Positions 20,783 through 26,512 of a stretch of DNA of 26,512 nt are shown here, in pieces. The stretch is taken from positions 1 to 26,512 of the IMG/VR virus record IMGVR_UViG_2698536335_000001; one strand, given 5' to 3'. Position 1 is the first letter of the stretch. Each line of letters opens with the position of its first letter. The DNA is from a virus (taxonomy: Duplodnaviria; Heunggongvirae; Uroviricota; Caudoviricetes). The position numbers and the translations under genes were made by a program. The notes beneath the pieces were generated by a model that was not told the DNA's origin, ran no database searches, and saw nothing but the letters and a program-made list of their open reading frames with translations.

Positions 20783-20859
20783 GTGGCATTAGCTCAGTTG
20801 GACAGAGCAACCGCCTTCTAAGCGGTTGGTCGCAGGTTCGAATCCTGCATGCCACGCCA
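20783..20859 (+). tRNA. tRNA-Arg, anticodon TCT (reads AGA), 77 nt with encoded CCA
   Basis: Hand-folded cloverleaf: acceptor GTGGCAT/ATGCCAC, D arm GCTC/GAGC, anticodon stem ACCGC/GCGGT with loop CTTCTAA, T arm GCAGG-TTCGAAT-CCTGC; similar to but distinct from E. coli argU as I recall it. Confidence 0.9.
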
Positions 20860-21524: not shown

Positions 21525-23000
21525 TTAAGCATAGGGATCGTAATCTGTGATGGCCTTGCCTTGCTGGTTCTGCTGCCCGGGAATTCGCAGACGCTTAGAC
21601 ACAGGGAACGCAAACGTCAGCAGTAGCGCATCGCCTTTACCCGGAGAACGCCCAAGCCGCTCTTTGATATCTTCCTTCGGTTCGATAACGATTTTACCGT
21701 CCACTCGAACTTTGTACTCTGCCGCCGACAGGTCGTCCGCTGTTTCCTGGTCATCCAGCATGCCGCCCAGCCTCAGCCATGTCTTACATGAGTTGAACAT
21801 CTCCCCACGCTTGTTAAGCATCTGCGGGTCAGTGGACGCACCGCCGAACGGAACAAGTTGCCATGTACGTCCCCAGCCATCACCGATTGACTTCAAACCG
21901 GTTCCGTAACCGAAGTCGATGAACACCGCGTCAGCCTGGTACTGGTCTTCAAAGTCAGCGATACGCTTCGCCATAATCAGATCGTCGGTGGTCTTGTTGC
22001 CGGTCCACAGCACCTTACTGTGCAGCCCCTGCCGCAGGTATATCACCGCGTCATCAACACCGGAGTATGCAGGGTCAACGCCGATTATCACCGGAGCATG
22101 TGCCACCTGCGCAGCAGTTACCACCCGTTTCATTGCCTCGTCAGTAAGACCGGTAGGGATAAACTGCAATTCAGATGCATCAGGGAATATGCCGCGCACA
22201 CGGATTTTAACGAAGTCGCTGTCTTCCCCGTAGTCATCAACCCATTTCTGCAACTGCTGTTTGTTAGTGCCTTCCACCGTCCGGCTGTCAATCTGCGCAG
22301 TTTTCCAGCGGTGTTTATACTTGCGGAAACATTCACGGAATCGCCCGGTATTACGCGTAGGGTTTCCGAACGCCACCCAAATAATCTCAGTGTCTTCGTC
22401 CGTAAGCGCACCCTCGGCAACTTCCCACACCAGATCCGCAATGTTCGACGCTTCATCAAACACCACGATGATGCGTTTGCGCTCGTTGTGTAGTCCGGCG
22501 AATGCCTCAGTGTTGTGCTCAGACCAGGGGATTGCGTCAGCCCGCCACCGCTTGTCGTGCCCAGGATCATTGCTGTACATCGCGGTAGCGGTACAGGTAA
22601 ACCAGTCTTTCGTGATAGCAAGGTTCGACCACTTGATAATTTCCGGCCAAGTCTTCGTTCGTAGCTGGTTGTCGGTGTTGGCGGTCACCACGACCTTACA
22701 ATCCTCGCAAGTGGACATGCCCCAGTTGATCAGCATTGAGATGAATGCGGATTTACCAATACCGTGACCAGAAGCACGTGCCAGCATAAGCGGCTGATAT
22801 CGCGTCTCTGGATTCTGCAGGTGATCACGTATCTCTCGGAACGCATCGGCCTGCCACTGACGTGGACCGGTGGCATGTGCCAGTTCAGTACCCTCTTCCC
22901 CCCACGGGAACGCATAGAGGGCATAGCCAAGCGGATCGTGAGTGAACCCTGCAATATCCTCGATTAACTGCTCTTCAGGAGATAACACTGTATCTGTCAC
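21525..23000 (-). CDS. terminase large subunit, 491 aa
   Basis: Walker A-like ASGHGIGKS and Walker B-like IIVVFDEAS in the N-terminal ATPase region, acidic nuclease-like C-terminal half; start overlaps the small-subunit stop. Confidence 0.85.
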   Translation of the reverse strand: MTDTVLSPEEQLIEDIAGFTHDPLGYALYAFPWGEEGTELAHATGPRQWQADAFREIRDHLQNPETRYQPLMLARASGHGIGKSAFISMLINWGMSTCEDCKVVVTANTDNQLRTKTWPEIIKWSNLAITKDWFTCTATAMYSNDPGHDKRWRADAIPWSEHNTEAFAGLHNERKRIIVVFDEASNIADLVWEVAEGALTDEDTEIIWVAFGNPTRNTGRFRECFRKYKHRWKTAQIDSRTVEGTNKQQLQKWVDDYGEDSDFVKIRVRGIFPDASELQFIPTGLTDEAMKRVVTAAQVAHAPVIIGVDPAYSGVDDAVIYLRQGLHSKVLWTGNKTTDDLIMAKRIADFEDQYQADAVFIDFGYGTGLKSIGDGWGRTWQLVPFGGASTDPQMLNKRGEMFNSCKTWLRLGGMLDDQETADDLSAAEYKVRVDGKIVIEPKEDIKERLGRSPGKGDALLLTFAFPVSKRLRIPGQQNQQGKAITDYDPYA

Positions 23001-23593
23001 TGATTACCATCCTGACGTTCTTTGAGTCGCTTCCTGGCTGCTGCTATGCGATCAGCAATTGTCACATTCACATTAACATCCAGGCGTTCTTTGAATGCGT
23101 TGACGTCGACGTGCTTACCAATCAGTTCGAGGTTCTTCACCTTGTCAGGCCATTTAATTTTTTTGAGGATTGTCTCTATCGAATCCTCGTTCATGTTCAT
23201 GATGGTCGATGACAGATCAAAGCCGCTAAGCGTAGTGCGCCAGATTTTCGGCCACTCGCGGATTGGCTTAAGGCTCCCATCGTCGTTGAGGATGTCGATC
23301 ACGTCCATCTGGTCGATCTCCACCAGGCGCATGAGAACGTAATCAGCACTGACGCGCATTCGTTTGTTGCGCTCCTCCATCAACTCGGCAATCCGTTTTT
23401 GAATGCGTTCATCGCGCATCATGACACTGGCTTTAACTGCCGCTGTATTTGGGGAGAATCCTGCATTAATCGCTGCCTGAGTCTGGTTTTCAGGCGTTTT
23501 GATGTATGACTGGCAATAAGCCTCCTGCATTGCTGTTAGTGGCTTAAATTGCGTTGATTTGCGTTTATAGGTTTTAGGTTCAGCAGGCATCAT
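22997..23593 (-). CDS. terminase small subunit, ~198 aa
   Basis: Immediately upstream of and overlapping the large subunit; helix-rich basic protein; ATG at 23593 (track start 23671 is a TTG extension running through a terminator and tandem repeat). Confidence 0.65.
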   Translation of the reverse strand: MMPAEPKTYKRKSTQFKPLTAMQEAYCQSYIKTPENQTQAAINAGFSPNTAAVKASVMMRDERIQKRIAELMEERNKRMRVSADYVLMRLVEIDQMDVIDILNDDGSLKPIREWPKIWRTTLSGFDLSSTIMNMNEDSIETILKKIKWPDKVKNLELIGKHVDVNAFKERLDVNVNVTIADRIAAARKRLKERQDGNQ

Positions 23594-23596
23594 AAC

Positions 23597-23632
23597 CACC
23601 GTGGTAATAGTTACCGTTGTGGTAATAGTACC
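23597..23632. repeat. tandem direct repeat, two copies of ~18 bp, core GTGGTAATAGT at 23601-23611 and 23619-23629
   Basis: Read directly: accgtggtaatagttaccgttgtggtaatagtacc, between the terminator and the terminase small-subunit start. Confidence 0.5.
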
Positions 23633-23662
23633 ATGCAAAATAAAGCCGCCATAGTTGGCGGC
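23631..23662 (-). terminator. rho-independent terminator upstream of the terminase genes
   Basis: gccgcca-tagt-tggcggc (23645-23662) followed on the minus strand by TTTATTTTG; 6 nt after the stop of gene 23668-23901. Confidence 0.6.
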
Positions 23663-23667
23663 AGTAT

Positions 23668-23901
23668 TCAAAGTCCATCAAATTCATCGTAAAAACTCTC
23701 GTCAAGATACCCTTCCCATTTACCGCGAATGAAAATTACATCCTCGCCGCAAGGGTGCTGACTGTCGATAACTATATCCCTCCTGGCGCAACCATACTTA
23801 TGCATGAGAAATTTAACCTCTTTCGGAAAATTTGCTGAATTATCTCTCATATCTTCAAGGTCGTAGCGTATTTTTGGCATAACACCTTCGTGACATGTCA
23901 C
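23668..23901 (-). CDS. hypothetical protein, 70-77 aa
   Basis: GTG at 23901 overlaps the upstream TGA (GTGA) or ATG at 23880; no recognisable motif. Confidence 0.5.
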   Translation of the reverse strand: MTCHEGVMPKIRYDLEDMRDNSANFPKEVKFLMHKYGCARRDIVIDSQHPCGEDVIFIRGKWEGYLDESFYDEFDGL

Positions 23902-24245
23902 ACTATTAATTTCGTTTCATGCCAGCCTTTAGTCACCCAGCATTGCGAGTCACCATTACACGGGCATGAATTAACGGGAACTCTCTCGCCGCACTTACCG
24001 CAAAGTTTTCTGCTGATCGATTTTATACGCCCGCGCACACGTGCATCATCCTGGCGGATCAGCAGCGCGATGTACTCGGCCATTTCATAGGGATCGCGAC
24101 CAGGGCGCCGGGCGGCGCAGTTCCGCGCCAGCATTTCCTGCTCCTGCTTATCCAGCATCAGTTCAATTTTGCGCTCACCGGCGGCGGACTGCCGAGCGCG
24201 CTGCGCGGCTTTGCGTTCTGCGGGGGATTTAGCCACGAATCGCAC
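23898..24245 (-). CDS. hypothetical protein with C-terminal Cys-rich zinc-ribbon-like motif (CGKCGERVPVNSCPCNGDSQC); start uncertain
   Basis: Basic N-terminal half, five Cys in 21 residues near the C-terminus; track start is GTG. Confidence 0.5.
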   Translation of the reverse strand: MRFVAKSPAERKAAQRARQSAAGERKIELMLDKQEQEMLARNCAARRPGRDPYEMAEYIALLIRQDDARVRGRIKSISRKLCGKCGERVPVNSCPCNGDSQCWVTKGWHETKLIV

Positions 24246-24351
24246 TCCACGCCAGATTGATTAATGACTCCCAGGCAATATAAACCCGGATACCAGCAGC
24301 CAGGCCGAAACCAATCACCATGGCATAAAGCAGAGCGTTGCACTTGTTCAT
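24229..24351 (-). CDS. small hydrophobic protein, 40 aa (MNKCNALLYAMVIGFGLAAGIRVYIAWESLINLAWSAIRG); absent from the ORF track
   Basis: ATG shares a base with the upstream TGA (TGATG) and is preceded by AGGAGG; one hydrophobic helix; overlaps the uncertain start of 23898-24245. Confidence 0.3.
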   Translation of the reverse strand: MNKCNALLYAMVIGFGLAAGIRVYIAWESLINLAWSAIRG

Positions 24352-25085
24352 CACTTCACCTCCTGCGGCGGTTCCGGTAGCGGCATCCAGTGAGTTGCTT
24401 GCTCAATACCATTACCCGGCTTAATCGTTGCATCTCCGCGCCGAAAGGTGCTTCCGGTATAGCGTGCGGAGCATATTAGCGGTTCAACCAGAGAGCTATC
24501 GAAATTCACCGAAATAAGCACGTTCTGGCCCTTTTCAGGCATTCGATCACTACAGCTTATCCAACTATCCGGAGTTCCCGGAGAGTTGCCATTTACATCG
24601 AAGTTTGGCTCTGCGTCCTGAACCAAGAGGATGTAACCATTCTTGGCTGTATCAAGTTCTAACGCTTCGGTGACGGTGCCGAAATAGCGATTACCTAAAT
24701 CAGCATCACAAGTGCTTATATCAATGGAAACTTCCATGCCTTCGATTAATTCTGGCAAGTTGTAAGTTTGGCTTACAGGTTGGCTACCCTGAAGCATGGC
24801 GGCGCGGTGACACCAGATAATCCAGCCAAGCGCCATATCCCATGCCATGTATTCTCTATCGCCATTTTTTGCCCTACGGCGATCTACAGATTCCCCGAAA
24901 CGCTTCTCCATAAATAATTCATAGGCTGCTCGTTCATCCGATACTGCTGCCAGTGATGCCAGTGCAATTTTTAATGCGGTAAGCATGTTGTTTTGATCTT
25001 CATCGAGTCCGAACGGTATTTCATCCCGTGCTGACTCAATGCTGGTAATCGTGTTCTGTAACCATTCTTTGGTAAGAGTATTCAT
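24351..25085 (-). CDS. nin-region-type protein with DUF551-like C-terminus (…HWMPLPEPPQEVK), 244 aa
   Basis: C-terminal W-x-P-L-P-E-P-P motif recalled from DUF551 proteins of lambdoid phages; N-terminal ~15 aa shared with gene 25281-25748. Confidence 0.65.
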   Translation of the reverse strand: MNTLTKEWLQNTITSIESARDEIPFGLDEDQNNMLTALKIALASLAAVSDERAAYELFMEKRFGESVDRRRAKNGDREYMAWDMALGWIIWCHRAAMLQGSQPVSQTYNLPELIEGMEVSIDISTCDADLGNRYFGTVTEALELDTAKNGYILLVQDAEPNFDVNGNSPGTPDSWISCSDRMPEKGQNVLISVNFDSSLVEPLICSARYTGSTFRRGDATIKPGNGIEQATHWMPLPEPPQEVK

Positions 25086-25087
25086 AA

Positions 25088-25279
25088 CTATTTCACCTTA
25101 ATCTCAACATTTCGCAGCTTTAGCTCTACTGGCAAGTCTGACTTTCCTGTTAATGCTAATGCGAGATTTTCAGGAGTAATGAGAGCTGTTATTGTTTTCC
25201 CCATCGCCAGACGAATAATCATTCGTATCTCGCGATCGTCACATGCTCCCGGTCGAACAATTGATATTTGTCCGTTCAT
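25088..25279 (-). CDS. hypothetical protein, 63 aa
   Basis: ATG at 25279 with AAAGGAGAG RBS, one nt after the upstream stop; track start 25300 is a TTG extension. Confidence 0.5.
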   Translation of the reverse strand: MNGQISIVRPGACDDREIRMIIRLAMGKTITALITPENLALALTGKSDLPVELKLRNVEIKVK

Positions 25280-25280
25280 C

Positions 25281-25748
25281 TCACTCTCCTTTGATGCCAA
25301 TGTTTACAGCCTGACAAGCCTCTTTGAGCACCCAGTCAACAGCGTCTTTCCATGCTCCGGTTTCGACTGGCGGATTTTCACTCTTAACCTGTTCATAGAA
25401 GCGCACCGCTTTAATCAATCCTTCGGGTGTCAGTGGCACAGGCTGGGCCGTGAATAACGCCTGAATTTCATAGTTCGGCCTGTCGTTGCAATTCTCTTTT
25501 GTCGGTACATATTTCCAGTCACCAACCCACGGCTTCTCCTGAAAGTTCGTAACGCCTTTTCTCACGTAGCGATATCGCCATGTCACCGGTTCGGCTTCCA
25601 GCGATACCAGCGCGACTTTAAATGCGGTAAGTACGTTTTTAACCACATCGATTTTAAATACTATTTCATCACATACAAACGATTTATCGTCTACTACCGT
25701 TTCAATTCCGGTAATCGTGTTTTGTAGCCATTTGGTTAATTCAGCCAT
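25281..25748 (-). CDS. hypothetical protein, paralogous N-terminus to 24351-25085, 155 aa
   Basis: MAELTKWLQNTITGIE versus MNTLTKEWLQNTITSIE at the N-termini; C-terminal parts differ. Confidence 0.65.
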   Translation of the reverse strand: MAELTKWLQNTITGIETVVDDKSFVCDEIVFKIDVVKNVLTAFKVALVSLEAEPVTWRYRYVRKGVTNFQEKPWVGDWKYVPTKENCNDRPNYEIQALFTAQPVPLTPEGLIKAVRFYEQVKSENPPVETGAWKDAVDWVLKEACQAVNIGIKGE

Positions 25749-25894
25749 TTTTCATTACCGCCCTTTCGGGCGGTCTCCTGATGTTCTGAGGGTGCAGGAA
25801 TCCCTCCGGTTAAGGATTAAATTTTATTTACAGAACTGAATTTAATTATTCAGATATACGTATCTGTAACCTTACGAACCTACTCACTGGATGC
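25749..25894. promoter_or_regulatory. AT-rich intergenic region with inverted repeats: CTGAAT-N6-ATTCAG (25836-25853) and hairpin ccgccc-tttc-gggcgg (25758-25773)
   Basis: Read directly; lies between the methyltransferase stop and the start of the next minus-strand gene. Confidence 0.3.
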
Positions 25895-26368
25895 CTATTT
25901 CATAAAAATAATCCAGTGGGTTTTATCGTTTTTTCCTGTTCGTTGACCGATAACAGGTTTTCTGTCGGTCAGTACCAATATCTGGCGAACAGGTATTTGC
26001 GTTTCATTCCATTTAAAAATCAGAACTCCGGATGGACGCAACACACGAAAGGCTTCTTTAAATCCCTGCCGCAAATCATCACGCCAGGTATCTTTATTCA
26101 GCCGTCCATATTTCTTTCCCATCCAGGCGTTATCACCAACACGCTCAAGATGCGGAGGGTCGAATATAACCATCGAAAAAGATGCGTCTGCAAATGGTAG
26201 TGCACGAAAATCAGCTATCAGATCAGGACTGATAATCAGGCGTCGTCCATCACACAATGTGTGCTCTTCCTTTCTGATATCGCTAAATATCGCCCGGTCG
26301 TCATTCTTATCGAACCAGAACATGCGACTGCCACAGCACATGTCGAGGATTGCTGCATGTCCAGTCAC
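25895..26368 (-). CDS. small phage-type DNA methyltransferase (Dam-like N6-adenine class), ~157 aa
   Basis: Motif I-like ILDMCCGS followed by the catalytic-type VIFDPPH (DPPY-like) motif; GTG start at 26368 with AAAGGAGG RBS; the track ATG at 26401 has no RBS. Confidence 0.65.
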   Translation of the reverse strand: MTGHAAILDMCCGSRMFWFDKNDDRAIFSDIRKEEHTLCDGRRLIISPDLIADFRALPFADASFSMVIFDPPHLERVGDNAWMGKKYGRLNKDTWRDDLRQGFKEAFRVLRPSGVLIFKWNETQIPVRQILVLTDRKPVIGQRTGKNDKTHWIIFMK

Positions 26369-26512
26369 TGGCTGCCTCCTTTGCGAAGCCGTTCCGCCCA
26401 TTCTTCAAGGGATTTCTCTGCATATTCACCGGACAGGCCATCAATCGGATGCGATTCATTAGCTAACTCTTCTTTTGCTGACAGAATCATGCGTGTAACG
26501 TCGAAAACTTCA
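26365..26512 (-). CDS. 3-prime end of a hypothetical ORF continuing beyond the window (…ELANESHPIDGLSGEYAEKSLEEWAERLRKGGSQ)
   Basis: Open frame from the window edge to TGA at 26365-26367, overlapping the methyltransferase GTG start. Confidence 0.4.
   Translation of the reverse strand, partial: EVFDVTRMILSAKEELANESHPIDGLSGEYAEKSLEEWAERLRKGGSQ

Follow-up and report, generated by a model that had tools for sequence, protein, structure and literature searches.

A compact phage-borne class I SAM-dependent methyltransferase, by sequence unrelated to Dam, that may act on DNA

We describe a phage gene whose product, a protein of 157 aa (18.3 kDa, pI 9.3), is according to its AlphaFold model a minimal single-domain Rossmann-fold SAM-dependent methyltransferase. 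Sequence and predicted fold together point to a class I amino-methyltransferase of a family of its own and not to DNA, while the catalytic motif and the genomic neighbourhood suggest that DNA is the likely substrate. With moderate confidence, we read the protein as an orphan DNA N6-adenine (or N4-cytosine) methylase of relaxed specificity that would act on DNA after infection or induction. Throughout this article, "the window" denotes the whole stretch of DNA that was analysed, 26,512 nucleotides in length.

Results

Start codon and ribosome-binding site

The gene lies on the minus strand and its open reading frame can be read in two ways, namely from ATG 26401 as a protein of 168 aa or from GTG 26368 as a protein of 157 aa. 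The features involved are as follows.

25895..26368, minus strand: methyltransferase CDS, 157 codons (474 nt), defined by the open reading frame and by identity to the CDS of RefSeq WP_000145671.1
25895-25897, minus strand: TAG stop of the methyltransferase CDS, inside the CDS coordinates
26366..26368, minus strand: GTG start of the methyltransferase, which is the RefSeq start and whose position homologues share
26375..26380, minus strand: AGGAGG, visible in the sequence itself as a Shine-Dalgarno element and separated from the downstream GTG by 6 nt (CAGCCA)
26399..26401, minus strand: rejected ATG start, which would add MGGTASQRRQP and a 37-nt overlap with the upstream gene
26365..26512, minus strand: 3' part of the upstream gene (PHROG 614, 116 aa), cut by the window end

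From ATG 26401 the codons run ATG GGC GGA ACG GCT TCG CAA AGG AGG CAG CCA GTG, and the AGG-AGG codon pair of this reading, at 26380-26375, is the AGGAGG Shine-Dalgarno sequence of the GTG, just as the sequence-only reading of this DNA had proposed. The upstream PHROG 614 gene ends in a TGA stop at 26367-26365, and the resulting 4-nt GTGA overlap with the methyltransferase start suggests translational coupling between the two genes; phage PhiR42_1 has the same overlap though its upstream gene differs. RefSeq lists exactly the same 474-nt CDS (WP_000145671.1, "class I SAM-dependent methyltransferase") in NC_013364, E. coli O111 11128, with a translation identical to the window protein, and gene callers give the 157-aa form in 10 of the 10 genomes listed. 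Close homologues start at the same position (MTGHAAILDM in P0001, MSAPATILDM in P0002). The ATG at 26401, used neither by RefSeq nor by the gene callers, was rejected. The earlier claim that GTG 26368 is the true start is thus borne out by the spacing of the AGGAGG, the GTGA overlap, RefSeq, the gene callers and the homologue starts, all of which agree. The re-assignment is correct but not new, because WP_000145671.1 already uses the same GTG, and it merely restores the RefSeq annotation. There is nothing unusual about the gene, a prophage gene that RefSeq already lists with this start and a generic function.

Family searches

Sequence comparison indicates that the gene is real and not a chance reading frame: the protein matches PHROG 954 ('DNA methyltransferase') over residues 3-157, i.e., at full length, with an E-value of 2e-86, a word-indexed search returned 7470 homologues, and both motifs described below fall in top-conserved blocks. 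Residues 6-157 also match the PADLOC models MTase_II PDLC03288 (3e-73) and oMTase PDLC03730 (4e-50), although the 'DNA methyltransferase' labels of PHROG 954 and PADLOC are annotation-level and imply no activity. In Pfam, Methyltransf_11 scored 24.2 bits against a cut-off of 21.2 and Methyltransf_25 stayed below threshold. A single stretch of the protein reaches a Pfam threshold:

26015..26080, minus strand: residues 97-118 (DLRQGFKEAFRVLRPSGVLIF), comprising the end of the long helix and strand beta5

The NCBIfam search with the window protein gave no match near threshold. All homologues with a source name, among the matches listed, are called SAM-dependent methyltransferase or similar, and an exhaustive search of 50%-identity representatives yielded 2080 clusters at E up to 1e-3. 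In the assembly collection, 4547 blocks are indexed for the exact window protein, and each contains at least one contig that carries it. Sequence and profile searches of the PDB found only PH0226 (7e-6). The prediction that a profile search would detect methyltransferase similarity was therefore correct (Pfam Methyltransf_11, PHROG 954, PADLOC MTase_II), and these matches together with the Rossmann-fold model described below confirm a compact phage-borne SAM-dependent methyltransferase.

Two further candidates were considered and dismissed. A truncated pseudogene was rejected, as a length of 154-168 aa is the family norm and all conserved residues are kept. A relationship to YmfD of the K-12 e14 element, a putative SAM methyltransferase, was likewise rejected, as motif I alone aligns and the probability is 1.6%.

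Distribution among temperate phages

A tblastn search placed the family in 256 phage records, with hosts including Streptococcus (68), Vibrio (38), Acinetobacter (19), Porphyromonas (15), Listeria (12), Gordonia, Lactobacillus and Enterococcus (11 each), Staphylococcus (10) and others; the phages are temperate and their hosts belong to Proteobacteria, Firmicutes, Actinobacteria and Bacteroidota. Eleven phage examples from the four phyla measure 154-191 aa (154-168 aa in 10 of the 11), all have the DPPH motif, and their identity to the window protein over 157 residues is 46-73%, the value for the Gordonia phage protein being 63%. A conserved C-terminal extension of ~90 aa (containing QLRYATKRIVELESLLL and RRLKHHINRMWLEK) sets apart a subgroup of 248-aa homologues (P0009, P0121 and similar) from Leclercia, Citrobacter, Klebsiella and Enterobacter.

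Fourteen gene contexts, hand-picked from a spread list and not a random sample, were inspected. The gene lies in a replication, recombination or early module in 12 of them, and the other two (Vibrio, Lenus) have no annotated replication, recombination or early marker. A DNA methyltransferase gene adjoins it in 6 of these 14 hand-picked contexts, five of them confirmed by Pfam:

Gordonia phage Pickett, Pectobacterium phage ZF40 and Lactobacillus phage Lenus: adjoining C5 methylase, PF00145 (Pfam)
Streptococcus phage Javan486: adjoining methylase, PF01555 (Pfam)
Bacteroides phage LoVEphage: adjoining PF05869 (Pfam), with a PF01555 fragment two genes further upstream
Listeria phage LP-101 (L005, 2474-3004): adjoining gp39, 176 aa, NPPF, by record annotation only

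The last of these, gp39, has no Pfam DNA-methylase match (only MTS, E = 0.04); it is another very small methyltransferase-like protein, and its gene lies immediately upstream of the one for gp40, which belongs to the family. The upstream gene varies among the contexts inspected, and no conserved partner gene emerged from them.

Context in the window and in E. coli prophages

The window is a mosaic in which positions 1 to about 24300 form a podovirus module for structure and packaging (with portal, major capsid protein, T7 gp14-like core protein, terminase and tRNA-Arg) and positions 24344-26512 an early segment. The tRNA-Arg gene (20783-20859, plus strand), whose anticodon TCT reads AGA, a rare codon, has the portal gene on one side and the terminase gene on the other. 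The 2.2-kb segment 24344-26512 is 99.8% identical to an early-operon segment of O111, O121 and O157 prophages, and in O111 11128 and the inspected loci zur, dinF and lexA are found next to that prophage; coverage of window positions 23000-26512 stays below 80% in every complete E. coli genome of the collection.

Downstream of the S24 (cI-type) repressor, the order in the E. coli prophages is YfdP, DUF2303 (YfdQ), the YfdR deoxynucleotidase, the 116-aa protein and the methyltransferase, followed by a 138/155-aa protein, a 63-aa protein, DUF551, a 3'-5' exonuclease and a PrtN-like protein. The neighbours in the window and 10 E. coli loci comprise proteins of PHROG 614, 660 and 1222, DUF551, YfdR, DUF2303, YfdP and the 3'-5' exonuclease. 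No restriction enzyme or nuclease partner was recognised among them, several neighbours being of unknown function, which agrees with the suggestion that the gene is an orphan methylase. A scan for sigma-70-like promoter or terminator motifs flanking the gene found none, so that the gene probably belongs to an early phage operon as one of its cistrons; given its place in the early module downstream of the S24 repressor in E. coli, it is presumably repressed in the lysogen.

Some neighbouring features deserve separate mention. The spacer 25749-25894 (minus strand; 146 nt), which follows the methyltransferase gene, is AT-rich and folds somewhat better than shuffled sequence (z = -2.4). At its end, with 8 nt left to the start codon of the next gene, stands a hairpin at 25774-25757 with a 7-bp GC stem and a GAAA loop (ACCGCCC-GAAA-GGGCGGT), which is not followed by a U-tract and was not called by the terminator scan. 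The open reading frames 25281-25748 and 24351-25085 (both minus strand) share an N-terminal module (MAELTKWLQNTITGIE and MNTLTKEWLQNTITSIE) and both match PHROG 660; their C-termini differ, the latter ending in DUF551, and RefSeq calls the former as 138 or 155 aa, depending on the genome. In P0158 (120 aa; PHROG 11564 'DNA methyltransferase'), residues 1-87 of the methyltransferase (to MGK) are fused to the C-terminus of a 70-aa open reading frame. Deletion fusions of this kind join at …MGKTITALIT… and the partner open reading frame corresponds to window positions 25088-25300 (minus strand). They look like truncated copies that are presumably dead, yet carry a methyltransferase label.

Conserved motifs

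Conservation was assessed in an alignment of 100 diverse family members, referred to as A1. The motifs are located as follows.

26327..26350, minus strand: motif I, ILDMCCGS, residues 7-14, the SAM-binding loop after strand beta1; L8, D9, C12 and G13 are each present in at least 90% of the 100 relatives
26279..26281, minus strand: Asp30, the motif II acidic residue at the end of strand beta2 (26-30), invariant in A1
26207..26212, minus strand: Asp53-Phe54, motif III-like DF, in at least 90% of relatives
26150..26164, minus strand: motif IV, F-D-P-P-H, residues 69-73, directly after strand beta4 (64-69 in the model)

The motifs occur in the order I, II, III, IV. The assertion that ILDMCCGS (residues 7-14) precedes VIFDPPH (residues 67-73, with DPPH at 26161-26150) holds, and both elements are highly conserved in the family. 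Residues D30, P48, P71, P72 and R108 are invariant in A1, and L8, D9, C12, G13, R32, D53, F54, F69, D70, H73, Y87, G88, W95, K119, W120 and others reach at least 90%. By analogy, Asp30 would bind the ribose of SAM.

A motif IV of the form D/N/S-P-P-aromatic is the hallmark of methylation of exocyclic amino nitrogens. Here D-P-P follows strand 64-69 and the fourth residue is His, as opposed to the Tyr, Phe or Trp of the classical motif. Since DPPH is kept in 98 of the 100 diverse relatives, the His is a family signature and not a lesion or defect. Motif IV appears to be of the amino-methylating type, and methylation of an amino nitrogen is predicted.

Predicted fold and the nature of the substrate

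A single-sequence AlphaFold run reached a pLDDT of 37.6 and was redone with a 100-sequence alignment, which gave a pLDDT of 94.8 and a pTM of 0.89. The model has strands at residues 7-9, 26-30, 34-37, 43-46, 64-69, 110-121, 138-144 and 150-156, and helices only at 82-87, 95-109 and 127-131. It corresponds to the Rossmann methyltransferase core without the usual helices after strands 1-3 and without an extra domain; the Rossmann-like fold, motif I after strand 1 and the acidic residue of strand 2 place the protein among the class I (Rossmann-fold) SAM-dependent methyltransferases.

No specific family emerged from Foldseek comparisons with the PDB and BFVD. The top ranks were nucleomethylin, Bud23, PH0226 and Trm11, and other near folds included phospholipid N-methyltransferase, TrmN, RsmC, Trm14, TrmM and the archaeal m4(2)C rRNA synthase; the DNA methylase M.TaqI appeared only at rank 21, with a TM of 0.52. 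Among the viral models of BFVD there was one close relative only. PH0226 of Pyrococcus horikoshii (PDB 1ve3) differs in its length of 227 aa and its full set of Rossmann helices, and in the alignment no DPPH motif is matched.

An enzyme acting on amino groups of RNA or nucleotides, i.e., on tRNA or rRNA (N2-guanine or N6-adenine), a free nucleotide or a signalling molecule and not on DNA, is in our judgement unlikely. It would account for the closest folds, which include Trm11, TrmN, RsmC, Trm14, Bud23, TrmM and the archaeal m4(2)C rRNA synthase. It is established that these RNA amino-methyltransferases have the same order from motif I to motif IV, with D/N-P-P-aromatic. A DNA target-recognition domain is absent from the 157-aa protein, in its sequence as in the AlphaFold model, and the proteins of the E. 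coli and Gordonia phages are 63% identical, an unusually strong conservation across phyla that would fit a universal target. However, the RNA enzymes known to be of this type have additional domains for RNA binding (THUMP, PUA, N-terminal domains), all of them missing here, and the family clusters with DNA methylase genes in DNA replication and recombination modules. Comparison with Trm11, TrmN/Trm14, RsmC/RsmD and TrmN6/TrmM adds that these have a (D/N)PP(Y/F) motif, with Tyr or Phe in motif IV where the family has His, that besides their added RNA-binding domains they are only 12-19% identical to the window protein, and that they are cellular housekeeping genes whereas the present one is an early phage gene.

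A methylase of small molecules or proteins, or a SAM-binding protein that depends on a partner or is non-enzymatic, seems to us distinctly unlikely. In Pfam, nothing but the generic Methyltransf_11 and Methyltransf_25, in which small-molecule enzymes predominate, comes close to or exceeds its threshold, and the lack of the usual helices after strands 1-3 in the model may leave a face free for a partner. Yet the near-invariant D-P-P-H after strand 4 argues for amino-group catalysis, the variable upstream gene and the lack of a conserved partner gene in the contexts inspected speak against an obligate partner, and the location in a phage early module with DNA-methylase neighbours fits DNA better.

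Relationship to known DNA methylases

The earlier description of the enzyme as Dam-like did not survive comparison with the Dam families, and at the family level the protein is, as far as sequence comparison can tell, unrelated to Dam. PF05869 (phage Dam) was matched neither by the protein (E up to 1) nor by the 100 relatives (0.01) nor by the family consensus (E up to 10), and PF02086 (E. coli and T4 Dam) by none of the three; hhalign of A1 against the PF05869 Dam carried by the same prophages gave a probability of 0.07%. The gap of ~55 residues between motifs I and IV holds strands 2-3 and a hairpin, and the recognition-domain insertion of the alpha-class Dam enzymes is absent. Five of the 10 E. 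coli loci listed carry, besides the methyltransferase, a separate 217-aa PF05869 Dam, located on the far side of the repressor gene, where Cro, replication and RusA genes also lie. A compact GATC N6-adenine methylase akin to T1, T4 or E. coli Dam is thus very improbable, even though the protein is small and phage-borne and has a D-P-P-x motif IV, in view of the unmatched families, the negligible hhalign probability, the missing recognition domain and the separate Dam in half of the loci.

In the E. coli prophages L010, L012, L016 and L017 the 217-aa Dam adjoins PerC or a LexA-like protein, near RusA; where both genes are present, one phage encodes two unrelated small methyltransferases. The T1-type Dam enzymes (PF05869) resemble the window family in being compact (about 160-220 aa), phage-encoded orphans of early or nin regions, and the two sometimes adjoin, as in LoVEphage, but they have no detectable sequence relationship and co-exist in the same E. 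coli prophages.

The sole DNA-methylase family appearing at all in the Pfam searches was PF01555 (N6_N4_Mtase), for which the consensus scored 14.8 bits against a cut-off of 26.7, over residues 65-125 only (motif IV to strand 5), and which gave weak sub-threshold matches in 14 of the 100 relatives. Like the beta-class PF01555 enzymes, the family has an Asp-Pro-Pro motif IV and after it a helix that ends in RVL+P.G. It does not belong to that class: motif I precedes motif IV, in contrast to the beta-class order of motif IV, target-recognition domain and motif I, and the protein is about half the size of the PF01555 orphans and lacks a recognition or ParB-like domain. A circularly permuted beta-class enzyme is likewise unsupported, as the Pfam matches are sub-threshold and hhalign against Javan486_0035, a single-sequence template of low power, gave 0.14%. 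MT-A70 (PF05063) had no Pfam match with the protein, the 100 relatives or the consensus, and a relationship to it was rejected, hhalign against the MT-A70 protein of a related prophage giving 0.16%.

Discussion

The orphan DNA methylase that we favour would work as follows. The protein would be translated from the GTG that overlaps the upstream stop, possibly by coupling, as part of an early operon; after infection or induction it would methylate replicating phage DNA. Adenine N6 is the likelier target, since motif IV begins with Asp, and cytosine N4 would be possible. The specificity is probably relaxed or very short, because there is no recognition domain, and such methylation would blunt host restriction. 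Prophage orphan methylases such as M.EcoGI and M.EcoGII have been described as silent in lysogens and frequently promiscuous (PMC4659465); like them, the present gene is prophage-encoded and no restriction partner was found in its neighbourhood.

Several findings count against a DNA target. No curated DNA-methylase Pfam family scores above threshold, PF01555 included, the best structural neighbours are RNA or small-molecule methyltransferases, and 157 aa without a recognition domain offer little with which to bind DNA or read its sequence. In addition, His replaces the Tyr, Phe or Trp of the classical amino-methylase motif. Literature searches (DPPH motif, accession, phage methylases without recognition domain, prophage methylomes) yielded no characterised family member and no discussion of the DPPH motif.

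The invariant DPPH, the missing helices after strands 1-3 and the 46-63% identity across phyla leave room for a less classical reading, in which the family is a universal temperate-phage enzyme of ~150 aa, lacking a recognition domain, whose job is not classical site-specific DNA modification but either sequence-independent adenine methylation of DNA by a pared-down Rossmann core or amino-group methylation, as counter-defence, of a conserved target other than DNA, such as RNA or a nucleotide-based immune signal. We regard this as a tentative proposal and rather doubtful.

For the window itself the result means little, given that RefSeq already has the gene with this start and a generic function. 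The residual interest is modest and lies in the family, which is widespread (some 2000 clusters at the 50% identity level, found in temperate phages from four phyla or more) and unusually small in its architecture. It carries a 'DNA methyltransferase' label in phage and defence databases, yet has no DNA-reading domain. Once known, the substrate of the family would validate very many annotations or reveal a different early phage function, and the family could define one of the smallest amino-methyltransferase cores.
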